Shown here piece by piece: positions 2,728-29,155 of a stretch of 46,880 nt of DNA. How positions within the stretch are numbered: the first letter of the stretch is position 1; every line of letters begins with the position of its first letter. Under the pieces are notes generated by a model, which was given only the letters and a program-made list of their open reading frames with translations, was not told the DNA's origin and did not search any database. The stretch is from sequence record MN158206.1; one strand, given 5' to 3'. The stretch is from Escherichia phage BEK2. Both the position numbers and the translations under genes were made by a program.

Positions 2728-3111
2728 ATGGGACGCACTTCAAAGGTTGTATATCTTGGAAGCAACACTGGAGAGTGTGGTGGTTTTACAGTAGGAAAGG
2801 AATATAAGGCTTACAATTATAATACTGAATATAATTACATTTCAACTTATGATGATAAAGGTAGCTATCGTCAAATCAAGAACGGAGCATTCCACCACTT
2901 CAAACTCCATGATGAGGATGACCATTTTGTAACTGAGACTGAGTGCGCAGTCATGCAGCCCAGCGAAGATAAAAAACCATCTCTAATATATTGCATAAAC
3001 GGTCATGAAGTTGACATGATTGAGTTTGAAAATGTGCGCCATAAGGTTCTAGAGCTTGATGCTTATGGCGTAAAATGCGACACAATCAAGTTCGAAGTAA
3101 AATTCGAGTAA
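2728..3111 (+). CDS. hypothetical protein (autonomous cargo gene between terL and portal)
   Basis: ATG 2728 with GAGGAG RBS; own promoter upstream and own terminator downstream; no recognisable domain. Confidence 0.6.
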   Translation: MGRTSKVVYLGSNTGECGGFTVGKEYKAYNYNTEYNYISTYDDKGSYRQIKNGAFHHFKLHDEDDHFVTETECAVMQPSEDKKPSLIYCINGHEVDMIEFENVRHKVLELDAYGVKCDTIKFEVKFE

Positions 3112-3132
3112 TCAAAAACTGTGTGATAAACT

Positions 3133-3158
3133 AGCCCCTAAATGGGGCTTTTTTTATT
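3133..3158 (+). terminator. intrinsic terminator
   Basis: hairpin agcccc-taaat-ggggct followed by T7 run. Confidence 0.7.
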
Positions 3159-3168
3159 GGAGAAAAAC

Positions 3169-4437: not shown

Positions 4438-5122
4438 GAGCCAGGTTAACCGCAATCTAAGTATTGCGGTAACTGAGTTAATTTCAGCAATGAAGGAGTC
4501 AGCAACAAGGCTTAAAATTGATACTGCGGAGGAACTGGAGGAGGAGGATGGATACCTTGATGGGGTAATTGCGGCATTGGTGGCTTCCTTTATATCAACA
4601 ATCCCAGCCATAGGGGCGGCGATATACAGATACAATAGCTCTCAATTTCTTGCGCTTGCAATCAAGACCGGAGGAAGATCCAACCCTAGCGTTCTAGACC
4701 TTGAAGTTAATGGCATTAATGGCGATGAGCCGTGGTATAATGATGACCTTAATCAGTGGGTTTACACCACAAACAAGTCAGCGATTAAATTACTGAATAA
4801 CATTAAAGATGACTTCATTCAAACGGCATCAACAGCACAGAATGGTGACTACGTTGAGTTATCAGATAGGTACAAAACATACAGAAAGCGAACGGCAAAC
4901 ATCGCATCTGGGATTGTGTCAAGCCTAAACTCTACACTTATGAGGCGGAGGATTGATGATGCTGGCGTTAGTCGTTACATCTGGCATGGTATGCTGGACG
5001 ATAGGGAGCGCCAGTCTCACATAGCAAGAGAAGGCCTTAGCTTTAAACTTGGTGGTAACGATATATTTCCAGGTCAAGAATACGGCTGTCGTTGTTGGTC
5101 TGTTCCAGATTGGGAATCATAA
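4394..5122 (+). CDS. head morphogenesis protein (Mu gpF / SPP1 gp7-like)
   Basis: C-terminal motif 'RYIWHGMLDDRERQSHIAREG' typical of Mu-F family; GTG start at 4394 overlaps portal 3' end, start uncertain. Confidence 0.65.
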   Translation: MKPVTTRWKYPQTIESQVNRNLSIAVTELISAMKESATRLKIDTAEELEEEDGYLDGVIAALVASFISTIPAIGAAIYRYNSSQFLALAIKTGGRSNPSVLDLEVNGINGDEPWYNDDLNQWVYTTNKSAIKLLNNIKDDFIQTASTAQNGDYVELSDRYKTYRKRTANIASGIVSSLNSTLMRRRIDDAGVSRYIWHGMLDDRERQSHIAREGLSFKLGGNDIFPGQEYGCRCWSVPDWES

Positions 5123-14520: not shown

Positions 14521-14550
14521 TTAATGGGGCTTCTGCCCCTAGGGATTTTT

Positions 14551-14901
14551 ATGGCTATTGATACTTTTAACTGGTGCACGCAAGTCCAGGGTGGATCAGC
14601 ATCATTCAGCAATACGAACAACGTGCGAATTGTTAGCTTCGGGAATGGTTTTGAGCAAAGAGGGACTGGTGGTTATCGCAGCAACAAGCGAAGCTACCAG
14701 ATGACCTATACTAACAATGACTGGCGAGAGGTAATGGAATTTTGCTTCAACCACATCATTACCCCGTTCTTCTGGACTACGCCTCAAGGTGACACATCAA
14801 TGTTTGTTATTCAGCAGGATAGCATTAGCGTCACGCCGCTCAGAAAGGATGTTCAGACTGTAAATATGCAATTCGTGGAAGTATTTAGCTCAATGCGTTA
14901 A
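14551..14901 (+). CDS. minor tail protein (lambda gpM-like)
   Basis: 'RIVSFGNGFEQRGTGG' resembles lambda M 'RFGDGYSQRAPAG'; start 14551 (track start 14524 lies in a hairpin). Confidence 0.7.
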   Translation: MAIDTFNWCTQVQGGSASFSNTNNVRIVSFGNGFEQRGTGGYRSNKRSYQMTYTNNDWREVMEFCFNHIITPFFWTTPQGDTSMFVIQQDSISVTPLRKDVQTVNMQFVEVFSSMR

Positions 14902-14904
14902 ACT

Positions 14905-14928
14905 AAGCCCCTATGAGGGGCTTTTTTA
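14905..14928 (+). terminator. intrinsic terminator
   Basis: aagcccc-tatga-ggggc + T6. Confidence 0.65.
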
Positions 14929-14940
14929 TTGGAGAAATAT

Positions 14941-15696
14941 ATGCTAAGTCCAAAGTTTGAGAATCAGTTGCAAAGCCTTTTCCCTGGCGAGATTGTGACA
15001 CTAATCCAGGTTGACGGAACCTCCTTCGGAAGTCTCGTTTACAACTTCCACAATGAGAACATTTCATACACGCCAGAAGAGATTATGATGGCTCAAATGA
15101 ATGGGGAGCCACTACCAGAGAAGACTATTACATTTCGCGGTGAAGAGTATGGTCCTAGACCTTTCGGTATCTCTGGCATCAATATGACTTCTGACGGCAA
15201 AGCCAACAAAGTAACGCTAACAGTATCAAACGTAGACCAGCGTATTAGCGCACTTATCCGTACTTACAATGGATTGGTTAAAGCTAAGGTTACTATCTGG
15301 ATTACTACGCGTGATAACATCAACGAAGACGGGAGCATCGCTGATGGGGACTATCGCAGATTCGTTTACTTCATTGAGCGACCAAAGCAGGTTGACTACA
15401 AAACCGCATCATTTGAGCTAAGTAGCCCAATGGATATGGATGGAATTTATATCCCAGCGAGACTTGTTCAGTCTGTTTGCTATTTCGCCTCTAGGGGTTG
15501 GTATCGTAGCGGTAATGGCTGCGCTTATGCTGGCAATAGATACTTCAACAAGGATGACGAGCCAGTGTCAGACCCATCATTAGACTTCTGTGCAGGAACT
15601 GTTAACAGTTGCAAACTTAGATTTGGTGAGAATAATCAGTTAGATTTCGGTGGTTGTGCTTCAGCAAGCCTTCAGGCTAAAGCCAACCAGAGTTAA
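14941..15696 (+). CDS. minor tail protein (lambda gpL-like)
   Basis: 'LTVSNV' and C-terminal Cys cluster 'CYF...C...C...C' as in lambda L. Confidence 0.75.
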   Translation: MLSPKFENQLQSLFPGEIVTLIQVDGTSFGSLVYNFHNENISYTPEEIMMAQMNGEPLPEKTITFRGEEYGPRPFGISGINMTSDGKANKVTLTVSNVDQRISALIRTYNGLVKAKVTIWITTRDNINEDGSIADGDYRRFVYFIERPKQVDYKTASFELSSPMDMDGIYIPARLVQSVCYFASRGWYRSGNGCAYAGNRYFNKDDEPVSDPSLDFCAGTVNSCKLRFGENNQLDFGGCASASLQAKANQS

Positions 15697-15706
15697 GGAG
15701 AAATAA

Positions 15707-16465
15707 ATGTTAACACCAAAAGTTAAGCTGGAAATCTTCCAGCACGCAAAGGAAGTGTACCCGCAAGAATGTTGCGGGGTTGTTACCCAGAAGGGTAGGG
15801 CACAGAAATACCACAGAATCAAGAACGCCAGCAAAGACCCCGAAAATGAGTTTGTGCTTGATTCAAATGAGTATTCTGATATCGCATTTGGCTTAGCTGA
15901 TAATGAGTCAATTGTTTACATAGTTCACTCACACACGGGAGATGGTGCGACAACAAGACCTAGCCCGGCTGACATTTGTAGCTGCAATGAATGCGAGATT
16001 CCTTATGTTATCGTCAGCATTCCGGAGGGAGATATGCGCATCCTTGATCCATCAGCTATGCCACTGATTGGTCGCCCGTGGGGTTTGGGTAGCTTTGACT
16101 GCTGGGAGCTGGTGATGGCATTCCACAAGAAATACGGCGTAAAACTGAATGACTACCGCGTTAATTACCCGTGGTGGGAGAAACGGTACAATGAAAATAT
16201 CTATGAAGACAACTGGATTAAGGAAGGATTTGAACTGGTAAAAACTTCAGATATTCCGATTGGCTCAATGATTATGATGCAGGTGCAAAGTGAGGTGGCA
16301 AACCACGCTGGAATCTACATTGGCAACAACAGATTCATTCATCACCTTTATGGTAAAATGAGTTCAGTTGATATCTACTCCGATTACTGGCGAGAGCGCA
16401 CTGTGCGAATCGTTCGCCATAAGGATTTACCAGAGGATGTAATTTATGACCCAGAAACTGATTGA
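15707..16465 (+). CDS. tail tip protein (lambda gpK-like; JAMM/MPN + NlpC/P60)
   Basis: JAMM motif 'HSHTGDGATTRPSPAD' and Cys/His C-terminal domain. Confidence 0.75.
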   Translation: MLTPKVKLEIFQHAKEVYPQECCGVVTQKGRAQKYHRIKNASKDPENEFVLDSNEYSDIAFGLADNESIVYIVHSHTGDGATTRPSPADICSCNECEIPYVIVSIPEGDMRILDPSAMPLIGRPWGLGSFDCWELVMAFHKKYGVKLNDYRVNYPWWEKRYNENIYEDNWIKEGFELVKTSDIPIGSMIMMQVQSEVANHAGIYIGNNRFIHHLYGKMSSVDIYSDYWRERTVRIVRHKDLPEDVIYDPETD

Positions 16466-17018
16466 TATTAAGTTAGGCCTATCTTTAGGGCGTAAGTTTG
16501 GCAAGATTCACAAAATGGCAGTGAGCAGCGTTCCTGAAGCAATGCGAGCGCTTTGCTCACAAATTCCTGCTTTCAAGGAGTTCATGAACAGTCATGTTGG
16601 TCAAAACACAAGGTACGCCGTGTTCGTTGATGGTAAAAATGTGAATGAGCATCGAATCTCTGATTTTGGCGCCGTTCAGGAGATACGAATCTTACCAATC
16701 CCGCAAGGTCGTAAGTCTGGCGGCTTGTTTCAGACTATTTTAGGCGCCGCTCTTATCACGGTTGGCATCTTTACCGGGCAGATTTATCTTGTTGGCGCTG
16801 GTGTTTCTCTGGCTGCTGGCGGTATTGCTCAATTACTCTCGCCGCAAGCGACTGGATTAAAGACCCAGAACAACCAAACAAGCAACCGCGCATCATACGC
16901 ATTCGGCTCCGCAGTAAACACGGTGGCAGCTGGCTATCCGGTTTGCCTTCCATATGGCTATCGAACGGTTGGCGGCTCTGTGTTTAGTGCAGGCAGTTAT
17001 TCCGAAGACATTGCTTAA
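16446..17018 (+). CDS. tail assembly protein (lambda gpI-like)
   Basis: 'AMRALCSQIPAFKEF' and 'GRKSGGLFQTILGAAL' parallel lambda I 'AIRALATQLPAFRQK' / 'GAKSGGVFQIVLGAA'. Confidence 0.7.
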   Translation: MTQKLIDIKLGLSLGRKFGKIHKMAVSSVPEAMRALCSQIPAFKEFMNSHVGQNTRYAVFVDGKNVNEHRISDFGAVQEIRILPIPQGRKSGGLFQTILGAALITVGIFTGQIYLVGAGVSLAAGGIAQLLSPQATGLKTQNNQTSNRASYAFGSAVNTVAAGYPVCLPYGYRTVGGSVFSAGSYSEDIA

Positions 17019-17024
17019 ATATCA

Positions 17025-17047
17025 TACCCGCCTAGTGCGGGTTTTTT
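17025..17047 (+). terminator. intrinsic terminator
   Basis: acccgc-ctagt-gcgggt + T6. Confidence 0.65.
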
Positions 17048-17098
17048 ATTTAGTGTAGAATGGCACAAATGATCAAAACAAACATGAGGCTTTGTGAT

Positions 17099-20000
17099 AT
17101 GGCTGAAGATATTAAGATTTATGGTGCTAAGGGTGGTAGTCAGAAGCCGCATCAACCGGTGGAGCAGGAAGATAACCTCATTTCACTAAACAAGGTTAAG
17201 GTGTTGCTTGCTGTCGCTGACGGAGAGGTTGATTCAAACTTCTCAATGAAGGATTTATACCTTGCTGACGTTCCGGTGCAAAACCAGGATGGTAGCTACA
17301 ACTACGAAGGTGTTCGCGCTGAGTTCCGTGCTGGAACGCAGTATCAGGACTATATCGCTGGCCTTGATGGTGCAAACTCAGAGATTCAGGCATCAAGGGA
17401 AATCAAAAACGATACCCCGTACATCATTGCGGTTAACAATACTCAGCTATCGGCGATTCGTGTAAAACTATATTGGCCTCGACTGGTTAAGCAAGAAAGC
17501 AATGGAGACCTGAACGGAACAACTTGTGAGTACGCAATTGACCTGTCTGTTAATGGTGGAGCGTATCAGGAATACACTCGAGGAGTTGCTAACGGGAAGA
17601 CAACTACAGGTTACGACCGCAGCATTCGTGTAAACCTTCCGGCTGAATTTGATAGCGCATTGGTTCGCATCAGAAAGATTACGACAGATTCGACGAGTAG
17701 CACATTGGTTAACGGGATGCAGATTACAACCTATCAGGAAGTAATTGACGCTAAATTCCGCTATCCGCTTACAGCTCTTGTTTACGTTGAGTTTGGCTCT
17801 GACCTTTTTCCTAACGGTATCCCGACAATCTCTATCAAGAAGCGATGGAAGTTGATTCAGGTTCCTACAAACTATGACCCTGAAAGCAGAACTTATAGTG
17901 GCACATGGAATGGTATATTTAAAATGGCATGGTCAAATAACCCTGCGTGGGTTCTTTATGACTTAGTGACAAACCGCCGATATGGTCTTGATCAGAGAGA
18001 GCTTGGTGTAGAGATTGATAAGTGGGGTCTGTACGAAGCTGCGCAATTCTGTGACCAAATGGTTCCAGATGGAAAAGGCGGCATGGAGCCGCGCTACCTG
18101 TGCGATATGGTTGTGCAGAATAAAGTTGAGGCTTACACGCTAATTCGTGATATCTGTTCGATCTTCCGTGGCCTGACTTTCTATGATGGCGAAAAGATTG
18201 GTATCGTAGTTGATAAGCCTCGTAATCCATCTTACATCTTCACGAATGATAACGTTGTAAACGGATTGTTCAGCCGCACCTTTGCCAGTGATAAAAGCCT
18301 TTACACCACGGCAAACGTTCAGTTTGATGATGTTGAGAACAACTATCAGCAGGATATTGAACCAGTATTCGAATTAGAGGCAACTCGTCGTTTTGGATTT
18401 AACCCTGTAGATTTAACTGCGATTGGATGTACTCGCAGAAGTGAAGCAAACAGACGTGGCAGATGGCTACTGAAAACCAACCTGAGAAGCGAAACCATCA
18501 GCTTCACTACCGGGTTGGAAGGTATGATTCCGATGATTGGTGAGGTTATTGCGGTCAATGACGCGGCATGGTCGAGCAACTATCAGTTAAACCTTTCCGG
18601 TCGCATTGAATCAGTCCAGGGATTGCAGGTTTTTACCCCGTTTAAAGTTGACGCAGCGCCTGGCGACAGGATTCTTCTGAACAAGCCTGACGGAAATCCA
18701 GAAGCAAGAACTATTGCAAGCATTTCGGAAGATGGTAGGACGATTAACCTAAACACGGCGTTCAGCTTTGTAGCTCAGCCTGATACTGTGTTCGCAATTG
18801 ATAAGGATAATCTGGCACTTCAGCAGTATGTTGTGACCGGTATTCAAAAAGCAGATACTGATGGTAAGGACTCATTCCAGTATACGATTACTGCGGTAGA
18901 GTACGACCCTAACAAGTATGACGAGATTGACTACGGCGTTAACATTGCTGACCGCCCGACTTCAATTGTGGAACCTGACAGATTGTCGCCACCAGAAAAC
19001 CTGACCGTTTCAAGCTATAGTAAGGTTGTTCAGGGATTATCAGTTGAGACGATGGTAATTGGTTGGGATAAGGCGCCATACGCTAAAACTTACAATGTTC
19101 AGTGGAGGAAAGAGAACGGCAACTGGATTAACGTACCCAGAACAGCTAGCACAGAGGTTGATATCGAAGGTATTTACGCAGGAATCTATGACGTCAGGGT
19201 TCGCAGCGTATCAGATACTGAAAACGTTTCTGCCTGGTCTGACATTGTAACTGTTTCGCTAACTGGCAAGATTGGTCGACCATCTGCGCCTACGGTTATC
19301 ACTGCGTCAACTGATGAAGTATTTGGTATCCGTGTTAAATGGGGATTCCCTGAAGGCTCTGGCGATACTGCTTACACTGAACTTCAGCAGGTTCCAGATA
19401 ATGGTGATGGTACTTACAATCCTGATAGCGCCAGTCTGTTAACTTTGGTCCCGTATCCTCAGTATGAATACTGGCACACACCGATTCAACCAGGCAAGGT
19501 GATTTGGTATCGCGCAAGATTGATTGACAGAATCGGCAATACCTCTGATTGGTCTTATTTCGCTAGAGGCATGAGTACTGACGACGCCAGCATCATCAAC
19601 GATTATATCAAGGTTGATATTGAGGGTTCGGAAGGATTCAAATACCTCGAGCAGAATGCGATTCAAAAGAATCAGGACATTCAGAATCAAGCTGAGGCAA
19701 TTATCGAGAACGCATTGGCTAATGATGGTGATGTTCGTCGCATGACAAAGGAGAACGGCAAACGTAAGGCTGAATATGTTCAGGCAGTTAATCTCATAGC
19801 CGATGAAACTCAGGCGCGTGTAGAGGCTCTCACGCAGCTTAAAGCGCAGATAGATGATGAAATTGTTGGTCAGATTACAACAATTGAAACAGCGCTAGCT
19901 ACAGAGACTGAAGCCAGGGCAACAGCTGACACGGCTTTAACCGCAAGGATTGGTGATAACGAGGCGGCAATAAACCAGAAGCTAGACGCGTTCTCTAATG

Positions 20001-20485
20001 CCACATCAACTGGCGTACAGTACGGAATTAGTTTGGGCCTTAAATACAATGGGCAGACTTATTCATCGGGTATGAGCATGGAACTTGTTGGCACTGGTGA
20101 CAATGTTCGCAGTCAATTCATTTTTGACGCAAACAGATTCGCGATCAGTAATGGCATTGGTTCTGGTTCCGGTCAGTGGCAACTCCCCTTCGTTGTCGAG
20201 AATGGAAACGTGATAATCCAGAGCGCAGTAATCGCCGATGGCTCAATCAGTAACGCTAAGATTGGTAACTTTATTCAGTCTAGTAATTACGTGGCTGGCT
20301 CAAATGGTTGGAGGATATCAAAGGATGGAGCAAGTGAATTCAATAATGTGGTTGTTAGGGGCGCCCTATACGCATCCGAAGGTAACTTTGCTTTTAACGG
20401 AACAAACAATACGGTACAGATTAACGGGAACGGAATCACTGTTAACTTACCTGGAGGAGGAAGAGTTGTGGTAGGTACGTTCTAA
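17099..20485 (+). CDS. central tail fiber / host specificity protein (lambda J-like)
   Basis: strong similarity in order and motifs to lambda J N-terminal 2/3 (e.g. 'LIQVPTNYDPESRTYSGTWNGIFKMAWSNNPAWVLYDLV', 'DKWGLYEAAQFCDQMVPDGKGGMEPRY'); start 17060-17099 uncertain. Confidence 0.9.
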   Translation: MAEDIKIYGAKGGSQKPHQPVEQEDNLISLNKVKVLLAVADGEVDSNFSMKDLYLADVPVQNQDGSYNYEGVRAEFRAGTQYQDYIAGLDGANSEIQASREIKNDTPYIIAVNNTQLSAIRVKLYWPRLVKQESNGDLNGTTCEYAIDLSVNGGAYQEYTRGVANGKTTTGYDRSIRVNLPAEFDSALVRIRKITTDSTSSTLVNGMQITTYQEVIDAKFRYPLTALVYVEFGSDLFPNGIPTISIKKRWKLIQVPTNYDPESRTYSGTWNGIFKMAWSNNPAWVLYDLVTNRRYGLDQRELGVEIDKWGLYEAAQFCDQMVPDGKGGMEPRYLCDMVVQNKVEAYTLIRDICSIFRGLTFYDGEKIGIVVDKPRNPSYIFTNDNVVNGLFSRTFASDKSLYTTANVQFDDVENNYQQDIEPVFELEATRRFGFNPVDLTAIGCTRRSEANRRGRWLLKTNLRSETISFTTGLEGMIPMIGEVIAVNDAAWSSNYQLNLSGRIESVQGLQVFTPFKVDAAPGDRILLNKPDGNPEARTIASISEDGRTINLNTAFSFVAQPDTVFAIDKDNLALQQYVVTGIQKADTDGKDSFQYTITAVEYDPNKYDEIDYGVNIADRPTSIVEPDRLSPPENLTVSSYSKVVQGLSVETMVIGWDKAPYAKTYNVQWRKENGNWINVPRTASTEVDIEGIYAGIYDVRVRSVSDTENVSAWSDIVTVSLTGKIGRPSAPTVITASTDEVFGIRVKWGFPEGSGDTAYTELQQVPDNGDGTYNPDSASLLTLVPYPQYEYWHTPIQPGKVIWYRARLIDRIGNTSDWSYFARGMSTDDASIINDYIKVDIEGSEGFKYLEQNAIQKNQDIQNQAEAIIENALANDGDVRRMTKENGKRKAEYVQAVNLIADETQARVEALTQLKAQIDDEIVGQITTIETALATETEARATADTALTARIGDNEAAINQKLDAFSNATSTGVQYGISLGLKYNGQTYSSGMSMELVGTGDNVRSQFIFDANRFAISNGIGSGSGQWQLPFVVENGNVIIQSAVIADGSISNAKIGNFIQSSNYVAGSNGWRISKDGASEFNNVVVRGALYASEGNFAFNGTNNTVQINGNGITVNLPGGGRVVVGTF

Positions 20486-20489
20486 AACA

Positions 20490-20509
20490 AAGGCCCCGAA
20501 AGGGGCCTT
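20490..20509. terminator. bidirectional terminator between convergent J gene and minus-strand operon
   Basis: aaggcccc-gaaa-ggggcctt flanked by T-runs on both strands. Confidence 0.65.
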
Positions 20510-20513
20510 ATCT

Positions 20514-21458
20514 TTAATACATGTCAGGAAGGTAAGGAAGTGGTGTTGATATTGTTACGTCAGGCCTATTCCCTATCTCGTATCTGACAATCCTTGAACC
20601 GGTTCCTGAGCGAACATAACCATTGCTCATCACGATTCCTTTGTTTCTCAACTCCTTATATGCTGGTATTGCCCTTGTGTTAAATCCACATCTAAGTATT
20701 GGGAAGTAAGAGTCACCAATGTACTGGTTGCTACCTGATAGGTTTATGAATCCAGAAACAACCAATGGCCTTGTGACGGTTGATAAAGTGCAGGCACCAT
20801 TTGAGTTAAATATGTTAAGTCCCGGACCAGGGGTTGGTGCTACCATCTGAAAAATAATCAAGTCCATAGTGACACTTCCTGGGGTATCACCAGTATCTTC
20901 AGTATTTATGTTTGTACATATTAACTGATTGCTCCCATTGTACTCAACTGACACACCGGAGTTGCTCCACTTTCCAAATGGAATTCCATAAATTGGCAGC
21001 GTGTAAGTGTCGGTGAAAGATATACTCTGAGCAAACTTGCACACCAACAACCTGTCAGTGGTGGTTATCGAAGTAAAATCAGTACTATTCGCAACATAAA
21101 TACCCTGGCCAGCCGATGCTCTTAGTACCTCAACAACAGTGCCAGAAAATTGCGTTATACGGTCAGAGTATCCATTCTCGTAACCAATTGATATTGTTCC
21201 GCTTGATTCTGTTGATGAAAATCCATTTATGTAGTAAATCTCAACTCCCCTATCAAGTTCGAATGAGTAGGCGCCATTGTTAGGGATAAGGAACCTTGAC
21301 GCTCCTTCATTGCCCTGAATTGAAAATGTCTTACTAAACCCGCCGCTAGAAACGTTGAAATTGCCAGCGAAATTCAATGCCCGCATCCCTGCGGTAATTG
21401 TCATTGGCTTCCTTCCATCATTGAGGTCTATATAAATACCTTGAGCCATTAATTCCAC
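20514..21458 (-). CDS. putative receptor-binding / tail-tip accessory protein
   Basis: 314 aa Gly/Ser/Thr/Asn-rich beta-type protein co-transcribed downstream of lipoprotein gene, adjacent and convergent to J; functional call is inference. Confidence 0.4.
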
Positions 21459-21679
21459 TCCTTAGAGCCATAATCACTAACAGATCCACCGGAGCCTTTA
21501 ATACCAGCGTAGCGAATATCAACCTCACCAGCAGGAACAACTACACCACCTTTCCACTTAGACACGCACACGCCGTTTGCTTGCGTTGCACACCAACCAT
21601 CCGGGCGAGGACCAGAAGAACAACCAACTGCCATGATTACTGCTGCTGCGATGATTGCTGATTTGATGAAGTTATTCAT
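21449..21679 (-). CDS. lipoprotein, Cor/Llp-like superinfection-exclusion candidate
   Basis: signal peptide + lipobox '[10 protein letters not shown]|SS'; ATG 21679 with AAGGAA RBS; small mature domain with 3 Cys. Confidence 0.65.
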
Positions 21680-21714
21680 TTTGTATTCCTTAGTAATTTC
21701 GTTTCGATGGAGTA

Positions 21715-21757
21715 ATAGTATCGCATCCTTGCGATCAGTGTTTAGCAATTAGTGCTA
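21715..21757 (-). promoter_or_regulatory. composite early-type promoter (box + -10 TACTAT)
   Basis: box 21743-21757 (minus sense TAGCACTAATTGCTA), -10 at 21715-21720, leader 'ctccATCGAAACGAAAT'. Confidence 0.55.
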
Positions 21758-22431
21758 TTCGCCAAAAATACAGCTCTTGCAAATCCACGAGGTGTAAGAC
21801 TGCGAATTACCTTTGTTTTCTTGCTCTTCCCGCCTAGCTTCTTGTGCTGGTCTGAGTATCCATCATTAACGTCAACTGGTGAGGCTTGAGGCCATTTAAA
21901 CCCATTGCCAGACCAAATGCACGTCTTCTTAGGATATGCGTCTCTTGGCTTTATTAGGTCGCTAAAAAACGGGTGTAAATCATCTTCCGGCAAATAGCCT
22001 CCGTATTCGTAAGGGTGAAACGTGTTATCAGGTTTACTCCAGAGCGATGACAGCACGCTGACTGGGTTCTCAATCATGTATGGAACTCCGTATTTTTCAG
22101 CCAGTTTAAAAGCAACCTTGCAAGTCTCTGCCGCCTCAATTTGGAAGTTTTGGTTGGCTAGGCGCTTACGCTCAAAGTGTGCTGCCCCGCTCACGGCTAA
22201 ATCCGTACAGGGCGGGAATGCCATGATAAAATCAGGCTTCACATCAAAATCAAAACTGGAATCTATCCAGGCATTAACGTATGTAATGTTCTCATGCTCA
22301 ACCTTTGCATTTAAGTCACTGTAGCTCCCGTGGTCGGAATCATCAAAGTTGAAGCAGCAGCATGTGTGGCCAGCTTCAGCCCAATCATTTACAGCCAAAC
22401 CAGAACCATCAAATAAAGACCAGATAACCAT
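21742..22431 (-). CDS. DNA methyltransferase (FxGxG / PPC / ENP motifs)
   Basis: 'LFDGSGLA', '[12 protein letters not shown]', 'MIENPV'; class (C5 vs N6) uncertain; C-terminus 'NSTNC' encoded by TAGCAC box. Confidence 0.55.
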
Positions 22432-22460
22432 TTCAAAACCCTCTTCGTTAAAGTGCGGCG

Positions 22461-22503
22461 ATTATACTGCACAAAATTTATTGTTCTTTAGCAATTCGTG
22501 CTA
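22461..22503 (-). promoter_or_regulatory. composite early-type promoter (box + -10 TATAAT)
   Basis: box 22489-22503, perfect TATAAT (minus) at 22461-22466. Confidence 0.6.
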
Positions 22504-23172
22504 TTTCTTTTCCAGCAGCAGCTTGATGTCAATGCCGAGATTATTCTCAATCAATCCGGTCAGCGCATCATTCTTTTCTTTAAGAGCGAAGCATTGCGCT
22601 TCATACTTAAATCTTTCCTCCATCTCATTCGAGCGACTAGCCCAACACTGGCGAGCCTCACAAGCCAGCATATCGAGTTTTTCATCGGTATTCTTATCCA
22701 TGAGTAAGATCTCATTTATTCTTTGCTCTGCAACAATGCGCTGGCTCAGGTGTGCATTTTGCGCATTAGCCACACCAAGCATCATTCGAGCCTCTTTTAG
22801 CTCATCAATGCTTACCATCCGGCTGATTACTTCTGCTTGTTTTTTAACTAACGCCTCGAGCTCATGAAGTCGACGGATAACTCTGCGACGAAGAACTACG
22901 CTGTAGCCAGTGATTAGCGTTTCGGTGAGTTCCTTGTTGAGTAAAATCTCAGATGTATAGCCTCGATTATCCGTAAGTACTTGATAATCATCATGACCCA
23001 AATCTGGGGCATCGTTATAATGTAACAATTCATTGATCATTTCCTTTGTGTCGCGAACGACGTGATCATGACGCTTACCTGTCAATTCAGCAATTTCCTT
23101 CGTGCTCATCATGGTTTTTGGCTGTTCTTTGTACGCTTCAATTTTCATTTTAGTCTCTCTTATGCTTTTCAT
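22501..23172 (-). CDS. Rha-family (phage regulatory protein Rha) domain protein with coiled-coil C-terminus
   Basis: 'MSTKEIAELTGKRHDHVVRDTKEM' matches Rha N-terminal domain; start 23172/23148/23112 uncertain. Confidence 0.65.
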   Translation of the reverse strand: MKSIRETKMKIEAYKEQPKTMMSTKEIAELTGKRHDHVVRDTKEMINELLHYNDAPDLGHDDYQVLTDNRGYTSEILLNKELTETLITGYSVVLRRRVIRRLHELEALVKKQAEVISRMVSIDELKEARMMLGVANAQNAHLSQRIVAEQRINEILLMDKNTDEKLDMLACEARQCWASRSNEMEERFKYEAQCFALKEKNDALTGLIENNLGIDIKLLLEKK

Positions 23173-23252
23173 GGCTCAGATTTGAGCCATCGCTTGGTTT
23201 TGCTCTACCGATTTTCGGTAGACCAAGCAGCACCATTGCCACCATGCGACTA

Positions 23253-23295
23253 AATATACCTAAAGATAGTCAGTTGTCTTTAGCAATTAGTGCTA
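23253..23295 (-). promoter_or_regulatory. composite early-type promoter (box + -10 TATATT)
   Basis: box 23281-23295, -10 (minus) 23253-23258. Confidence 0.5.
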
Positions 23296-23780
23296 TTTAT
23301 CGCCAATTTCACCACAAATCACAGTTACACGTAACCGATGTAACTCGATGTATACAATCTCATTCGCGGAAAATGATATACGCGCCGTTACGCAAATTTA
23401 CGCAATAGTTACATTAAAATATCTATATATATCAACCTTTTACTATTATTATTATTATATATATTACTGTGTATATCATGTAACTACTGTTCTGGAGTGT
23501 TCCGGTTATAATTTTAATATCATGTGGATTTATACAGTATTGTGTGGCAGCCATACCAATGCACCCCCCGCAAGAAACGGTATACACGATATACACGATG
23601 GTTACATTGAGCTATATCTGGGCTGAGATGCCATTTTACGTAACAAGTTGCAATGCCTACACGGAATTACAAGTATTCACGCGTAAGTTTAAATCAACGA
23701 TTGGCAAAACCAATTGGACTGGCTACGGTACCGAATATATAGTTACCTCATCGAAAGCAAGCAACCAGAGAGATACAGAA
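23296..23780. repeat. divergent control region A: iterons + AT-rich microsatellite tract (candidate origin/operator region)
   Basis: GTTAC-AC-GTAAC inverted repeat 23324-23335, TTACGCAA x2 (23386-23404), tandem TATACACGA x2 (23581-23598), (TA)n/(TTA)n tract 23415-23490, shared block 23604-23646. Confidence 0.5.
23714..23743 (+). promoter_or_regulatory. rightward sigma70-like promoter of region A
   Basis: TTGGAC ... TATAGT (23738-23743) followed by leader 'cctcATCGAAAGCAAGCA'. Confidence 0.45.
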
Positions 23781-23975
23781 ATGACCTACTACATTATCAA
23801 AGAGAAAAACAACGCACTGTTCGGCGATTGCTACTTTGGAGGCGAGGCCGGTTACACCACCGATAAGAATGAGGCAGACCGATTCGATACCAAAGAAGAA
23901 GCCAGGGATGTGCTGACTGGTTACTTCACTGAAGAAGATTTGAAGTCTGTTAAAGTAGTTAAGGTCAAGGGGTGA
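23781..23975 (+). CDS. hypothetical protein
   Basis: 64 aa ORF (internal start of track ORF 23544) directly after promoter/leader. Confidence 0.45.
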   Translation: MTYYIIKEKNNALFGDCYFGGEAGYTTDKNEADRFDTKEEARDVLTGYFTEEDLKSVKVVKVKG

Positions 23976-23978
23976 GTT

Positions 23979-24944
23979 ATGAGCTTTAAGGTTTTTACAA
24001 GGGAGGAACTATCAAACTCGGAGTACCACGCTGAAACTGAACACATCTCAGGTTCCTCACTTGTCGAGATTATTCAGGGTTCACCAGCCAAGTGGAGGTT
24101 TAAGCAACGCAATAGCGATAGCAAGGCTCTTAAGTTTGGAACGCTGAGTCACACGTATATCCTAGAGGGTGACATGTTTGATAAAGAATACCTTCGAGCT
24201 ACAGACCTTGATGCGATTGATGGATTAATTACAAGCCAAGCAGGATTATCAGCAGCACTTAAAAAAGTTGGTGTAGCTGGCACGTCCGGGAAGGGGTATA
24301 GCGAGCTCGTAGAAATGATGTATCGTTCTGGTGAGGATTGGCCTGTTAAATGGTTAATTGAGCAGCAGGAGGGCGCGCAGGCGCTCGTGGAGGGTAAGGA
24401 GTTGGTTAGCGCCGCAGACTATGACAAAGTGATAGCTATGCGTGAGGTTCTTTGCAACATTCCGGAATATGATGCAATTGTGAACAGCGAGACGGCGCAG
24501 AAAGAGTTATCAATATTCGGTGAGATTCTAGGTGTTGGAGTTAAGATTCGAATCGACCACGTAGATGTTATTGATGGTGTGGTTCGGATCACAGATTATA
24601 AAACGACAGCGGACGCAAGCCCAGAAGGATTTGGTAAATCAGCATTCAATCACGGATACCTTGCAAAAATGGCATTACAGCGTGATCTATTTGTTAAGGC
24701 ATTCAACGAGAAGCGCAAGGTTGTTGTAGGATTGCTGGCACAGGAGAAGGTGGAGCCATACTTACCAATGCTGTACACCTTAACTGACGAACAGCTTCGA
24801 ATCGGTAGGTTGCAGTATCTTGAGGCGCTGGCTACTTACAAGAAGTGTAAGGAGCTAGATAGCTGGCCAGGGTACTCTAATGGCATTACAGAGCAAGAGC
24901 TATTAGTTCCTGAGTGGGCATTAAAACAATATAAAGAAATCTAA
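23979..24944 (+). CDS. PD-(D/E)xK family exonuclease (recombination nuclease)
   Basis: 'VKIRIDHVDVIDGVVRITDYKT' D..D.K nuclease motif; upstream of Erf. Confidence 0.65.
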   Translation: MSFKVFTREELSNSEYHAETEHISGSSLVEIIQGSPAKWRFKQRNSDSKALKFGTLSHTYILEGDMFDKEYLRATDLDAIDGLITSQAGLSAALKKVGVAGTSGKGYSELVEMMYRSGEDWPVKWLIEQQEGAQALVEGKELVSAADYDKVIAMREVLCNIPEYDAIVNSETAQKELSIFGEILGVGVKIRIDHVDVIDGVVRITDYKTTADASPEGFGKSAFNHGYLAKMALQRDLFVKAFNEKRKVVVGLLAQEKVEPYLPMLYTLTDEQLRIGRLQYLEALATYKKCKELDSWPGYSNGITEQELLVPEWALKQYKEI

Positions 24945-24945
24945 A

Positions 24946-24988
24946 TAGCACGAATTGCTAAAACAAGGTGGGATAGCTGAGGTATAGT
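24946..24988 (+). promoter_or_regulatory. composite early-type promoter (TAGCACGAATTGCTA + -10 TATAGT)
   Basis: box 24946-24960, -10 24983-24988. Confidence 0.6.
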
Positions 24989-25020
24989 TATACCATCAAC
25001 AACGGACGAGGTTAAAGAAA

Positions 25021-25200
25021 GTGAGAATATTTGAAAGTAAAAGCTGTAGCGACATTGAGATATTCGTTAATGAAAATGATGGATTAATTCAAACAATAGA
25101 CATATACCAAGATGGAGATGTTGTCGTTATAAGTGAAAAATGTAAGGCGATAGAGATTGCAGAATATATTTTAAAAATTTCAGAATACCTTGAGGACTGA
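25021..25200 (+). CDS. hypothetical small protein (59 aa, below track threshold)
   Basis: GTG start with GAGG RBS; ends 1 nt before erf ATG. Confidence 0.3.
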   Translation: MRIFESKSCSDIEIFVNENDGLIQTIDIYQDGDVVVISEKCKAIEIAEYILKISEYLED

Positions 25201-25201
25201 C

Positions 25202-25852
25202 ATGCAAATTTCAGAATCATGCAAATCAATTTTAAAGGCGCTTCACACTGCAAAGGCTATGTTTGCAAAAGCGGAAAAAACAAAGTGTAACAATCACCTA
25301 AATAATAGATATGCAACTTTAGAAGACGTACTAGCGGCTGTTGAGCCTGGTTTAGATGAGTGCGGGTTGGTGATGTTCCAGAGTGTTCTTGATGATGAAC
25401 AAACGAATCGTATGAAGGTTGAAACTAAGTTGTTTCATGCAGAATCTGGAGAGTGGGTCAGCTTCTTAATGATTGTCCCAATCAGTAAGAATGATGCACA
25501 AGGTTATGGCTCAGCTTTAACATACGCTAGACGTTACGGAATCACGGCTGCCCTTGGTCTTAGCCAGGCAGATGATGATGGAAATCTGGCGGCTAAGGGA
25601 GTTAAAGACTTTAAACGAGAACTCGAGAAATGCAACACTCTTGATGAGCTTCGTAGTGTATGGAAGGAGGCCAAACAATCACTTGATGCGGCAGGATGGA
25701 AGGTTTTTGAACCTCACATTATCGAGCGAAAAGCAGAGATAGAGGCTAATGCAGCAACTGGCTTCAACCCAGCCACACCTAAGAAAGTTGCAGAAAAAAG
25801 TAGTGATAAAGAAAAGAATGAAGTAGAATCACAACAAATCGACACATTCTAA
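25202..25852 (+). CDS. erf: ERF-family single-strand annealing protein
   Basis: 'RYATLEDVLAAV' and 'GSALTYARRYGI' ERF signature. Confidence 0.8.
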   Translation: MQISESCKSILKALHTAKAMFAKAEKTKCNNHLNNRYATLEDVLAAVEPGLDECGLVMFQSVLDDEQTNRMKVETKLFHAESGEWVSFLMIVPISKNDAQGYGSALTYARRYGITAALGLSQADDDGNLAAKGVKDFKRELEKCNTLDELRSVWKEAKQSLDAAGWKVFEPHIIERKAEIEANAATGFNPATPKKVAEKSSDKEKNEVESQQIDTF

Positions 25853-25893
25853 TTTAATAGGGGCCTCGGCCCCAACAAACAGAGAGATAAAAT

Positions 25894-26319
25894 ATGCACG
25901 TAATTACTGGTCAGATTCGCCGCGCTCCATTCACTAAAGAAGGTCAAAACGCCAATGGTAACTGGAAAATGTTCGCGGTTGATTTGAGTGAGCGATACAA
26001 AGATAAAGATGGTCAATCGCAATATACGAATTACAGAGCCGTCTTCTTCGCTAAAGAATCCATGTTAGACTGGTATAATGAAGCATTTCAAGAGGGTAAG
26101 ATTGTTAGTGTTAGCTCTGAAAGCCTGGCTGTTGATGTTCGTGATAAAGATAGCAAGACTTACGTAACTGTTAACATGAACAATCCTCGTCTTGAGTTTA
26201 GCCAGCGTGGCGATACAGCACCACAACAGCATGGGCAAAAGCAACAACAGAAAACTCAGCAACAGCAGCGTCAGCAACCTCAGCAACAACAACAGGTTGA
26301 AGACGATATTCCCTTCTGA
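25894..26319 (+). CDS. ssb: single-stranded DNA-binding protein
   Basis: OB-fold N-terminus, Gln-rich linker, acidic tip '...VEDDIPF' like E. coli SSB 'DDDIPF'. Confidence 0.85.
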   Translation: MHVITGQIRRAPFTKEGQNANGNWKMFAVDLSERYKDKDGQSQYTNYRAVFFAKESMLDWYNEAFQEGKIVSVSSESLAVDVRDKDSKTYVTVNMNNPRLEFSQRGDTAPQQHGQKQQQKTQQQQRQQPQQQQQVEDDIPF

Positions 26320-26350
26320 TAAAAGATAAAGCCACTTTCTGATTTTGATA

Positions 26351-26374
26351 AAAAGGAGCCTTACGGCTCCTTTT
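26351..26374. terminator. bidirectional terminator
   Basis: aaaaaggagcc-ttac-ggctcctttt. Confidence 0.65.
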
Positions 26375-26379
26375 ATTAC

Positions 26380-27588
26380 TTAAACACCAGTCAGTCTAGA
26401 TAACTCCCTACGTAGAAGCGCGCACTCTAGAGCGAGGCACTCCTCCATTCGAACCATCCATATTTCTCCAGCATCCTTACTTTCATCGGCATCCCATTTT
26501 TCGTGAATAAGTATTCCGTAATCACATGCGTCCAGACCTGCTTTAAGGAACTTGTCTCTGATGTCTTGAGCAATTACACCAATGTGTAGACGAGCTTCAT
26601 TGTCTCCCTTCTCAGAAACTGCCCTCTTCATTTTCCACTGCTTGTAATTTACTGTACTCCAGGCATCAAGAACTTCGTCAGGAATATCACCTATAAAAAC
26701 CTTGTGGTTTTCATCGGAAACAACTGTAGGTGCGTTCTGAAAATACGCATTGTTATATGTCAGTGATGCATATCCAATGTTATGCGTCGCGGTAACGTCA
26801 GGTGCAAGTGTTCTTGTTCTAAGTATTCCCGACACATTACCTCCTCCGAAGTTTACAGCAGCAGTAGTATTTAGCTCTGCACCACTTACGAACTCCTGAA
26901 TCCAGGGGCCTACCGAAGATGAGGATATTTGTCGACGCCACCCCGTCTGCGATGCGCCATTAGTTCGCAATGTTTGTATGGTGTCGTTATTACCTATAAG
27001 GTACTCAACATCCATAATTGATGCACCAGTGCCTCTAGTTGGTACATCTGTGAACACAGAGAATACGGAGCCTGGAATGTAATATCGACCTGGTGTTTTT
27101 ATGTTAGACAGAAGGTTTCCGTTTGATGATGCACTAGAAGCCGTCATGAACTCGATCAATCCAAACTGAAAAACTTTATGCCAACCAGAATCCACGTAAT
27201 TAGCAGCGGCAGATCTATTTATGTGACGTGACCAAAGACCGTTTTCGTTCTGGTAAAAAAAAGAAATCTTATTGTTAGCCTCAAGTGAAGCGTAAACAGT
27301 TAGACGACCAGAAAGTCGTGCGCCGTTGGTTAGAGAAGGCATATCAAATTCTGTGTTTACACTCTGTGCAATCTCCGTCATAAATATGGCGTTATTTGGC
27401 ATTCTGGTAGCAATCAGAGACACAGTCGCTTCATCTGCGGTAATACCTAGTTCAGCAAGTTTAGTCAGAGTCATTACACCGGACTGGTCGTTGAGTCTAC
27501 CTATCTGAGACTCTATCATCATTAAGGCTTCGTCGAGGGAGTCTTTATTGGCAGTAAGAATGTTGGCATCGAGGGTTAATTTTTCCAT
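26380..27588 (-). CDS. tail fiber protein, possible C-terminal intramolecular chaperone domain
   Basis: Gly/Ser/Thr/Asn-rich body; C-terminus 'ARLHIGVIAQDIRDKFLKAGLD...YGILIHEKW' resembles auto-chaperone domains; low certainty. Confidence 0.45.
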   Translation of the reverse strand: MEKLTLDANILTANKDSLDEALMMIESQIGRLNDQSGVMTLTKLAELGITADEATVSLIATRMPNNAIFMTEIAQSVNTEFDMPSLTNGARLSGRLTVYASLEANNKISFFYQNENGLWSRHINRSAAANYVDSGWHKVFQFGLIEFMTASSASSNGNLLSNIKTPGRYYIPGSVFSVFTDVPTRGTGASIMDVEYLIGNNDTIQTLRTNGASQTGWRRQISSSSVGPWIQEFVSGAELNTTAAVNFGGGNVSGILRTRTLAPDVTATHNIGYASLTYNNAYFQNAPTVVSDENHKVFIGDIPDEVLDAWSTVNYKQWKMKRAVSEKGDNEARLHIGVIAQDIRDKFLKAGLDACDYGILIHEKWDADESKDAGEIWMVRMEECLALECALLRRELSRLTGV

Positions 27589-27598
27589 TTTAATATCC

Positions 27599-29116
27599 TT
27601 AAATTGTGAGGTCTACGTATAGTGGTTTGTGGTCACCTATAGCGAGAGGTGTATCTACAGAGCCATATTCACCTTGTTCTGAAAAACCTTTGTGGAATAT
27701 GCGATCAAGATACCATGTACCGCCGTTATTGCTGGTATTAATCTCCCCATTCCGGTTAACCATTGTGAAACCTGCGTCTATGAATGGTTGAAAATCAGAA
27801 TCGTTGTTGGTGTTCCAGTCACCCATCAATACGACATGGCTGTGTGTTTCTGCTGCAGCCATGCTTGCTAACTCGGTTATCATGGCACTAATGCGTTCCT
27901 GTGATAGCGCTAGATGAGTATTATAAACTACAACCGTTGTGCCGTTAACTTTCATCTCAGCTCTTACATAACTCCTGTATTCTGTGTCGCCTACTGTTGG
28001 TTGAGATAAGAAACGGGATCCGGTGACATTGGTTAGCGGTCGAGTTGAAGCTACCATGTTCCCGTAGTTTCTACCGAAGCTGAACCACTCTGAAGTTGAC
28101 TGGAAACCCGATCCGTAAGGGTAAAGCGCTAATTCGGATGCTCGCAAGTTGGGTACAGTATAGCTTTCCTGGCCGCCAACAAAATCCGCACCTATCCGTA
28201 GCCACCAAGTATTAATGTCAACGATTCGCTGCCTGTTAGCGTAGTCACCACCGAAATATCCACTTATACTGCCGGCTCCCCAGTTGTTCCAAGTGACGAA
28301 ACGAACCTTGTTAGAAGTAATTGCGTCTTCGCGCTCTCGAATCATCTGGCGTACGTTATCAGTTGAAGTTGCGACGATCTGTTCCCTAAGGGTAGCATCT
28401 GTTAGGCCAATCCATGCTGTCGGGCCTATTCCGCCAGTCGAATCCACGGTTGAGTTTGCTGGAACAACCTTAGGAAGTTCACCTCCCCACACGTAAGATG
28501 CTGCATTGCCATCTTTAATATCTATTATTTGCTGTGTTTTTGATTCAATTGTAACGCCATCCTGAAAGCTACCAATTAAGGCACCAGAAACAGAAGCGGC
28601 ACTTGCTGCGGCCTGTTGCGCAGATGTGGAAGCTGATGATGCGCTCAATTCGGATGATTGCTTATCCTGTGATACCTGATAAGCATCACTTGATACTTGA
28701 GCGCCAATGGTGACAATTTCTCCATATTGTGTGTTAATTTGGTTAACATCATTTGAAAATTTATCCTGATCAAAATCCTTAAAAACATCAACAGCTGTTG
28801 CAACTTCCGTTTCACGTGACTGGTAGTAACGAAGAGTTTCTGCAACATCCTGAGCCAAACCTTGAACGGTAATCCCATCGTGCGCAAGGATTGCGTAACC
28901 AGTTCCAGCAGGAACGGTTTCAGAGTTGGGGTTGTAAACATTAATCTGCGTATCGCTGATAATTTCTGAGATGGTGTAAATCTGTACCGGCTCTGTTTTA
29001 AATACAATGGTTGCACCAACTCTGATCAGTGTAAGTGGTGCCTTCCATGTTGTACCTACGCCAATAACCTCGCCATTTGCGGCCAGCGAAGCTGTTCCTA
29101 AGTCATAAATTGCCAT
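27599..29116 (-). CDS. tail fiber protein with C-terminal endonuclease/exonuclease/phosphatase (EEP) domain
   Basis: ATG 29116 with GGAGA RBS; Ser/Ala-rich linker; EEP motifs 'FVTWNNWG', 'NTHLA', 'VVLMGDWNTN', 'GDHKPLYVDL'. Confidence 0.7.
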   Translation of the reverse strand: MAIYDLGTASLAANGEVIGVGTTWKAPLTLIRVGATIVFKTEPVQIYTISEIISDTQINVYNPNSETVPAGTGYAILAHDGITVQGLAQDVAETLRYYQSRETEVATAVDVFKDFDQDKFSNDVNQINTQYGEIVTIGAQVSSDAYQVSQDKQSSELSASSASTSAQQAAASAASVSGALIGSFQDGVTIESKTQQIIDIKDGNAASYVWGGELPKVVPANSTVDSTGGIGPTAWIGLTDATLREQIVATSTDNVRQMIREREDAITSNKVRFVTWNNWGAGSISGYFGGDYANRQRIVDINTWWLRIGADFVGGQESYTVPNLRASELALYPYGSGFQSTSEWFSFGRNYGNMVASTRPLTNVTGSRFLSQPTVGDTEYRSYVRAEMKVNGTTVVVYNTHLALSQERISAMITELASMAAAETHSHVVLMGDWNTNNDSDFQPFIDAGFTMVNRNGEINTSNNGGTWYLDRIFHKGFSEQGEYGSVDTPLAIGDHKPLYVDLTI

Positions 29117-29140
29117 CGTGTAAAGTCTCCTTTTGTAAAA

Positions 29141-29155
29141 TAGCACGAATTGCTA
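29141..29155 (+). promoter_or_regulatory. orphan TAGCACGAATTGCTA box (no phased -10 for adjacent gene)
   Basis: perfect box between primase terminator and tail-fiber start codon, antisense to both. Confidence 0.4.

Follow-up and report, generated by a model that had tools for sequence, protein, structure and literature searches.

Two genes converge on the tail tip gene J of this phage, and the question they raise is which host receptor they concern. In the window, by which we mean the whole 46,880-nt stretch of DNA analysed here, they had been read as an operon for a lipoprotein that masks an outer-membrane receptor and for the receptor-binding protein (RBP) that uses it, on the pattern of T5 Llp/pb5 and T1/phi80 Cor. 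The pair is indeed present at the place given, as a 76-aa ORF and a long ORF, both on the minus strand. The genes, their junction and the terminator that closes them are as follows.

21449..21679, minus strand: predicted superinfection-exclusion lipoprotein gene, 76 aa, PF24052, orthologue of Rtp45
20514..21449, minus strand: predicted RBP gene, 311 aa, DUF6453, orthologue of Rtp44 and bas02_0024
21447..21463, minus strand: translational-coupling junction, AAGGAG (21463-21458) plus TAATG (21451-21447), read from the sequence
20490..20509, no single strand: bidirectional intrinsic terminator, common to J (plus) and to the lipoprotein-RBP operon (minus), with scan matches on both strands

The junction of the two genes reads AAGGAGTGGAATTAATGG. 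Near its 3' end, the lipoprotein gene contains a Shine-Dalgarno AAGGAG that precedes the ATG at 21449 by 8 nt, and the TAATG of the junction overlaps the lipoprotein stop with that RBP start codon; the lipoprotein and RBP genes are therefore translationally coupled. The preliminary description gave the second protein 314 aa, the length obtained when the long ORF is started, as in the ORF list, at GTG 21458. This GTG overlaps the AAGGAG, and a length of 311 aa is used by the GenBank record and by the homologues from Rtp (Rtp44), Bas01 and Bas02. Given the AAGGAG spacing, the GTG overlap, the TAATG overlap and the homologue annotations, ATG 21449 is almost certainly the start codon in use, so that the gene stands but its product is shortened to 311 aa. 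This product is rich in Gly, Ser, Thr and Asn, as had been noted, with these residues making up 38.6% of it, the highest share among the window's 34 ORFs of at least 150 aa (mean 25.7%, sd 4.7). The convergence on J is also borne out, J ending at 20485 on the plus strand and the 311-aa gene at 20514 on the minus strand. Between them the terminator forms an 8-bp G+C-rich hairpin with T-runs on both strands (-17.8 kcal/mol, z = -3.6). Together with the overlap and its ribosome-binding site, this terminator shared with J upholds the proposed pairing of the two genes in one operon.

Homology places the 311-aa protein firmly. It matches Pfam DUF6453 with E = 2.4e-120 (401.7 bits), and a phmmer search of all PDB sequences aligned its residues 1-311 with residues 1-321 of chain C in 9RPT, 9RPW and 9RQI (E = 1.9e-40). 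The RBP of phage Oekolampad (Bas18) was solved by cryo-EM on LptDE, 9RQI being the complex with Shigella flexneri LptDE (Dunbar et al. PNAS 2025, PMC12685063). Because the full-length alignment to the solved chain is poor in gaps, the 311-aa protein probably shares the double beta-sandwich fold of that RBP, with loops at the tip. Identity to the Oekolampad RBP is ~32–35% (31.8% at 100% coverage). It rises to 79% for Rtp44, 80% for the Bas01 protein, 89.7% for that of HK578, and 97% over 311/311 residues for bas02_0024 of Bas02 (JeanPiccard). Rtp44, which is a closer relative than the Oekolampad RBP, could not be expressed for the structural work (PMC12685063). LptD-type RBPs have been delimited by >30% identity over >99% coverage (preprint 10.64898/2026.04.02.716166), and comparison with either the Bas02 or the Oekolampad protein puts the 311-aa product among them.

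The relatives also indicate what such an RBP recognises. For Bas01 and Bas02 no non-essential receptor could be assigned, and spontaneous resistance came from in-frame lptD deletions (Maffei et al. 2021, PMC8594841). The same study described a 'bona fide RBP locus downstream of gpJ' whose allele tracks LptD specificity without exception, in a correlation spanning Drexlerviridae, Dhillonvirus, Nonagvirus and Seuratvirus (PMC8594841). The correlation of locus with receptor was confirmed on 255 phages (preprint 10.64898/2026.04.02.716166). For the related phage OzMSK, LptD dependence was confirmed as well, and RBP loop sequences were sorted into three groupings (Black et al. 2025). The Oekolampad RBP inserts deep into the open-state LptD barrel, where it contacts EL3-5 and EL11, and the LptD point mutants D352Y and Y671N abolish both RBP binding and infection (PMC12685063). 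The phage analysed here carries the Bas02 allele of the RBP locus, which makes LptD, the essential LPS exporter of the outer membrane, its predicted terminal receptor.

Database names would suggest something else for the 311-aa protein. The label of its family, PHROG 1265, is 'membrane protein; moron, auxiliary metabolic gene and host takeover', and several GenBank records call the homologue a 'membrane protein'. Taken at face value, these names would make the product a non-virion membrane protein or moron and would leave host specificity to J alone. We consider this extremely improbable: in four phage groups the receptor can be predicted from the type of locus (PMC8594841), and a by-eye reading of the 311-aa sequence finds no obvious hydrophobic transmembrane stretch. 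The PHROG label is an automated name at odds with the cryo-EM data. For the pair as a whole, PHROGs offers only 'membrane protein' and 'unknown function', and NCBIfam holds no model for the 311-aa protein or the 76-aa lipoprotein.

The 76-aa product is a lipobox lipoprotein, as proposed, with a signal peptide of residues 1-19 that ends in MAVG and is followed by C20SS. Its N-terminus comprises a basic N-region, a hydrophobic core and the lipobox with a predicted lipidated Cys20, and cleavage would fall at the same site as in Rtp45 (MMVG, then CSS). Residue +2 is Ser, that is, non-Asp. Under the +2 sorting rule of E. coli, a lipoprotein with Ser at this position goes to the outer membrane, and outer-membrane sorting is therefore implied for this one. 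The protein matches Pfam PF24052, 'Phage lipoprotein family', with E = 3.7e-35 (120.2 bits, cut-off 27), and in a search of all PDB sequences its residues 1-76 aligned with residues 1-76 of 9RPS chain D, which is Rtp45 (E = 6.3e-40). In the 9RPS structure, Rtp45, the exclusion lipoprotein of phage Rtp, is seen on LptDE together with endogenous LptM (PMC12685063). Identity is 82.9% to Rtp45, 83% to the Bas02 lipoprotein, 84% to that of HK578 and 87% to that of Bas01, and the closest lipoprotein, at 91%, comes from the 44.2-kb vB_EcoS phage series. The disulfide pair of Rtp45, Cys30 and Cys38, is conserved. The strand at residues 30-35 reads CATQAN where Rtp45 has CATQAS; in Rtp45 it pairs with LptD residues 318-323 (PMC12685063).

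How the lipoprotein would act can be read from the Rtp45 complex. There, Rtp45 sits between LptE and LptM on the periplasmic rim, close to strands 5-8, and a hairpin that it extends into the barrel lumen shifts EL4 by up to 20 Å, an arrangement incompatible with RBP binding; the block is described as steric displacement of EL4, in contrast to the long-range allostery of Llp on FhuA (PMC12685063). We conclude that the gene pair is very probably an LptD-type host-recognition cassette, in which the RBP binds LptD and the lipoprotein blocks that binding. Nothing in the sequence contradicts this explanation.

We infer that the proteins of this phage act like their characterised homologues. The 311-aa RBP would then sit on the tip of the J-like central fibre, held there by non-covalent contacts, and its tip loops would enter the extracellular side of the LptD barrel in the LptDE lipopolysaccharide translocon; contact with LptD, the terminal receptor, would set off DNA injection. 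After export and lipidation at Cys20, the 76-aa product would be sorted into the inner leaflet of the outer membrane. There, flanked by LptE and LptM, it would bind LptD at its periplasmic rim and extend a beta-hairpin up the barrel lumen. Displacement of EL4 by this hairpin would abolish RBP binding, and infected cells, along with envelope debris left after lysis, would become refractory to LptD-using phages. Both proteins would be made from a single coupled operon, which has a phage-type promoter of its own and shares its terminator with J, at a time in infection that we likewise infer. In vivo exclusion by the Rtp45 lipoprotein family is suggested by structure and by analogy; the strain list for the spot assays in PMC12685063 has none expressing Rtp45.

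The logic of a receptor-masking lipoprotein paired with an RBP therefore holds, on the strength of the Rtp45-LptDE structure, the 97% identity to the Bas02 RBP and the Oekolampad alignment, but the receptor would be LptD and not FhuA. With this change of receptor, the test with FhuA-dependent phages or colicins that had been suggested for the lipoprotein is expected to be negative.

The likeness to T5 deserves to be set out. There too a tail-tip RBP, pb5 (gene oad), addresses an outer-membrane beta-barrel while a small periplasmic lipoprotein, Llp, blocks the RBP from inside. Llp, like the lipoprotein here, has ~60 mature residues, and the pb5 and Llp genes are adjacent, as are the two in the window. 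T5 differs in that its receptor is FhuA and its pb5 and Llp genes are divergent, with separate promoters. With Cor of T1, phi80 and N15 the locus shares the slot after J beside recombination genes and the concept of a receptor-specific exclusion lipoprotein. The T1 locus differs in having two small genes co-oriented with J, with cor on the opposite strand, and its receptor is again FhuA.

Could the pair nonetheless be a FhuA-directed system of the T5 (pb5/Llp) or the T1/phi80 (RBP locus plus Cor) type? Its slot, downstream of and convergent on J, is the position of cor in T1, and T1 Cor matched PF24052 below threshold (17.7 bits, E = 0.0035; cut-off 27), which could hint at a very distant common ancestor of these small lipoproteins, although the match is too weak to carry weight. 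Direct comparisons argue otherwise. Against T5 Llp, only a 22-residue signal-peptide region of the lipoprotein aligned, and BLASTP gave no alignment of the lipoprotein with T1 Cor at E <= 100. The RBP had no significant alignment with T5 pb5 (best segment E = 2.0), and none with the protein that T1 encodes between J and cor. The closest relatives, at 97% and 83% identity, come from LptD-dependent phages, and the J tip is just 17% identical to that of T1. A FhuA-directed system is thus highly unlikely. Membership of the pb5/Llp or Cor families was rejected, BLASTP and alignments having found no homology beyond the signal peptide. The resemblance that had been drawn to T5 Llp/pb5 and to T1 Cor is one of function and logic, and for T1 Cor also of slot; it does not extend to sequence homology, the signal peptide of Llp aside.

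The LptD cassette extends beyond its two genes, into the end of J.

20381..20485, plus strand: 3' end of the J (tail tip) gene, which moves with the cassette, by nucleotide homology to HK578

Nucleotide homology to Dhillonvirus HK578 is restricted to window positions 20381-21679, a stretch made up of the RBP and lipoprotein genes, the terminator and the final 105 nt of J. The J protein as a whole is only 36% identical to that of HK578, but the last 28 alignment columns reach 91%. In Bas01, Bas02 and Rtp, whose J proteins are 88–95% identical overall, these 28 columns are 95–100% identical; T1 is the phage with 17%. The C-terminal residues of J, whose conservation is limited to LptD-type phages, are likely to be the docking site of the RBP. 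That the J tip must match the RBP is a published idea (preprint 10.64898/2026.04.02.716166), horizontal exchange of the RBP module has also been described (PMC8594841), and the covariation of J tip and cassette agrees with tip-RBP matching combined with such exchange. The cassette itself is mosaic. Its RBP is closest to that of Bas02 and its lipoprotein to that of the 44.2-kb vB_EcoS series, and these different closest relatives imply recombination inside the cassette as well.

J also bears on whether a second protein receptor is needed besides LptD, a need that would reduce the cassette to one half of the recognition apparatus. Bas01, which belongs to the same subfamily as the phage analysed here, requires NupG as well as LptD, the NupG requirement being assigned to the distal J domain (preprint 10.64898/2026.04.02.716166). 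The relevant part of J does not follow Bas01, however: alignment columns 901-1020 are 43% and then 11% identical to Bas01 but 95–100% identical to Bas02, a phage assigned to LptD only (preprint 10.64898/2026.04.02.716166). These Bas02-like columns rule out a NupG-linked J segment of the Bas01 type. Since the segment matches Bas02 and not Bas01, a NupG requirement is unlikely for this phage, and a need for any second protein receptor is very improbable.

In its gene order the locus is a familiar one. The pairs rtp44/rtp45 of Rtp, bas02_0024/0025 of Bas02 and bas01_0028/0029 of Bas01 (AugustePiccard) have the same order, orientation, sizes (311/76 aa) and gene overlap. Synteny is identical to that of Rtp (rtp43-44-45), Bas01, Bas02 and HK578, with the RBP gene directly downstream of J and accompanied by the lipoprotein gene, and the differences from the Rtp, Bas01 and Bas02 loci are allelic only. 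Outside the cassette there is a difference from the Rtp locus, in that ~1.6 kb upstream of the lipoprotein promoter, with a Dcm-like methyltransferase gene and a Rha-like gene, finds no match there. Oekolampad, a Dhillonvirus whose dependence on LptDE was shown by cryo-EM and resistant mutants, has the same protein families and locus type; it differs in its phage backbone and in an RBP only ~32% identical, and the loops that contact the receptor may be different.

Upstream of the lipoprotein gene, a sigma-70 consensus scan of the 62-nt gap found no promoter. A phage-type promoter element is nevertheless present, judging from a repeated palindrome, a TACTAT hexamer and a leader.

21741..21757, minus strand: palindromic promoter-associated element TAGCACTAATTGCTAAA, a repeated motif with 16 copies in the window
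21698..21720, minus strand: -10-like TACTAT (21720-21715) plus leader CATCGAAACGAA (21709-21698), from the alignment of the 16 copies

The 16 copies of TAGCACTAATTGCTAAA compare with 0.19 expected, and every copy points to its downstream gene. The copy at 21741-21757 shares bases with the stop codon of the Dcm-like methyltransferase gene that lies upstream, and its edge is exactly the right edge, 21757, that the preliminary description had drawn for the locus. Across the copies the layout is the palindrome, 19–20 nt and then a -10-like hexamer (TATAGT, TATAAT or TACTAT). Seven copies continue after the hexamer with the exact leader CATCGAAACGAA (7 exact copies in all, 0.16 expected), a ribosome-binding site and ATG; for the lipoprotein gene the ribosome-binding site is AAGGAA (21691-21686), 3' of the leader. 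The 22 nt that separate a TTGCTA from the -10 hexamer are too many for the TTGCTA to serve as a -35 element. The centre of the palindrome would fall at about -42, where class-II activator sites sit, and TAGCACNAATTGCTA is a putative factor-binding sequence.

The promoter had been called 'early-type', a label that we drop, because the TAGCACTAATTGCTAAA element also precedes genes in the structural half of the genome (at 505, 2650 and 10503). In Rtp a degenerate copy of TAGCACTAATTGCTAAA, with the same TACTAT and leader, lies upstream of rtp45, whereas the upstream region of HK578 is different and sigma-70-like (TTGCAT, ~19-nt spacer, TACTAA). From this comparison, the cassette appears to use whichever promoter type its resident genome supplies. 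Two co-oriented genes farther upstream each have their own TAGCACTAATTGCTAAA copy, at 22487-22503 and 23279-23295, and the terminator scan found none between them and the lipoprotein gene. With no terminator intervening, read-through into the operon from these two promoters is possible.

These observations touch on what the lipoprotein is for. Its main benefit might lie less in superinfection exclusion than in sparing progeny virions from LptD in the debris of lysed cells. Such a benefit would suit a lipoprotein that is coupled to a virion structural gene, so that both are made together, and whose promoter type also precedes late structural genes. The same idea was reportedly proposed for T5 Llp and Rtp45 by Wietzorrek and colleagues in 2006. 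Both roles are named for exclusion factors in PMC12685063. The possible read-through from the promoters at 22487-22503 and 23279-23295 speaks against tying the operon to the structural genes in this way. We regard the sparing of progeny as a serious possibility that falls a little short of an even chance. It concerns purpose, is compatible with the mechanism of an LptD-directed cassette set out above, and the two are not mutually exclusive.

Members of both protein families also occur farther afield. Kuravirus (Gordonclarkvirinae) podophages have unlinked homologues of the RBP and the lipoprotein. Their DUF6453 protein is encoded directly after the tail-needle gene (ORF38 in 172-1), and their Rtp45-family lipoprotein is encoded in the early region. 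From gene order and length, ORF38 of 172-1 would correspond to SU10 gp19, a protein that goes unmentioned in the main text of the SU10 virion-structure paper. Klebsiella Webervirus phages have both genes, again unlinked.

The joint presence in Kuravirus of a DUF6453 protein and an Rtp45-family lipoprotein suggests LptD as the terminal receptor of these O-antigen-dependent podoviruses. More broadly, J tip, RBP and lipoprotein might form a portable LptD-targeting set that has spread beyond small siphophages, with LptD an unrecognised terminal receptor of Kuravirus; this we put forward tentatively, as a somewhat doubtful proposal. The literature searched contained no discussion of LptD as a Kuravirus receptor, one paper mentioning both in separate contexts.

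For the phage analysed here, a two-gene LptD module is already known and structurally characterised in T1-like coliphages, and the locus adds nothing conceptual to Maffei et al. 2021 and Dunbar et al. 2025. It does allow two 'hypothetical protein' genes to be named, as an LptD-specific RBP and a superinfection-exclusion lipoprotein. The predicted use of LptD is of practical value in the design of phage cocktails, where a shared receptor means shared resistance mutations, and for phage-resistant production strains, for example with an LptD EL11 loop deletion.

The label 'hypothetical protein' is the one given to both genes in GenBank MN158207.1, the record of Escherichia phage BEK3 (46,884 bp; Drexlerviridae, Braunvirinae; host E. 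coli K514). By megablast, window positions 20300-22000 match this record at 100% and at the same coordinates, and the lipoprotein/RBP region 20514-21757 is 100% identical. Within 14300-28000 the only differences between the two sequences are a SNP at 22038 and a TAT indel at 23443, and neither falls in the lipoprotein/RBP region.

The palindrome TAGCAC(T/G)AATTGCTAAA occurs 16 times in the window against 0.19 expected, and all 16 copies point the same way as the gene downstream. A -10-like hexamer lies 19–20 nt beyond each palindrome. The copies constitute a genome-wide family of promoter-like elements, standing ahead of structural and DNA-metabolism genes alike. The center of the palindrome falls at about -42, which suggests that the family is activator-dependent. 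The genome paper of the related phage Rtp reportedly attributes an inverted repeat to Rtp52, and this repeat and the palindrome of the window are probably the same. Directly 3' of the hexamer comes a second repeat, the 12-mer CATCGAAACGAA, present in seven exact copies (0.16 expected); since every copy holds this position, the 12-mer is a conserved 5' leader.

Promoter-like repeats, leader copies and the genes of the stretch without an Rtp counterpart (window coordinates)
505, 2650, 10503, 21741, 22487, 23279, 24946, 29141, 33442, 34517, 39956, 41327, 41698, 43320, 44853, 45557: palindrome copies
10551, 21698, 33490, 39913, 41284, 41654, 44901: copies of the 12-mer CATCGAAACGAA
21742–22431: Dcm-like C5-methyltransferase gene, within 21721–23325
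22501–23172: Rha/Roi-like DNA-binding gene, within 21721–23325

Upstream of the lipoprotein promoter, homology to the Rtp locus ends at 21720 and picks up again at 23326; the intervening stretch of ∼1.6 kb (21721–23325) has no counterpart in the Rtp locus compared. Because the methyltransferase gene and the Rha/Roi-like gene within it are each preceded by their own copy of the palindrome, we suggest that gene cassettes have been gained or lost through recombination between promoter repeats. The methyltransferase gene also holds, at 22038, the one substitution (T against G) between the window and MN158207.1, the GenBank record of Escherichia phage BEK3, over 14300–28000. Relative to that record the window lacks one TAT unit of an AT-rich repeat near 23443, in a divergent intergenic region; the record is four bases longer, and this unit accounts for three of them.

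The J gene of BEK3 starts at 17099 in GenBank (MAEDIK..., 1128 aa). In the related phages Bas01, Bas02 and Rtp, the J protein begins MAQMIKTN..., for which the equivalent start in the window is the ATG at 17060 (1141 aa). Judged from these sequences, GenBank probably sets the BEK3 start 13 codons too late.

Relatives of both the DUF6453 receptor-binding protein and the lipoprotein were found in other phage genera.

Homologues in Webervirus and Kuravirus genomes (coordinates of the genome named)
Klebsiella phage NJR15 (Webervirus), 12001–12954: DUF6453 gene, E = 9.8e-86, unannotated
NJR15, 22555–22785: Rtp45-like lipoprotein gene (N-terminus MKTLLVAIVAVITLSG|C...), unannotated
Kuravirus 172-1, 3644–4678: ORF38, DUF6453 match
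SU10 (Kuravirus), 2926–3207: SU10_0104, Rtp45-family lipoprotein, PF24052 match

In the Klebsiella Webervirus phages, J is followed immediately by the DUF6453 gene, with both in the same orientation, and these phages may also use LptD. In NJR15 some 10 kb separate the DUF6453 gene from the lipoprotein gene, which stands right before a DNA methyltransferase gene; the DUF6453 and lipoprotein genes are therefore not always linked.

The DUF6453 protein of the Kuravirus podophages matches the family at E = 2.3e-24 and the solved LptD-bound protein 9RPT_C at E = 6e-9, and its gene sits right behind an inferred tail-needle gene and ahead of the ejection-protein genes. From gene order and length we infer that it corresponds to SU10 gp19, a protein that goes unmentioned in the main text of the paper on the SU10 structure; no discussion of LptD as a Kuravirus receptor was found in the literature searched. 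The lipoprotein (PF24052, E = 2.6e-36; LptDE-bound Rtp45, 9RPS_D, E = 1e-15) is encoded in the early region. Both genes are present in each of IME267 and EC.W2-6.

At 26380–29146 of the window, the annotation places two lateral tail-fibre genes on the minus strand, one of them with a note copied over from T5 pb1, 'binds to the polymannose O-antigen'. Their products are probably the primary, glycan-binding fibres, acting ahead of the LptD step.
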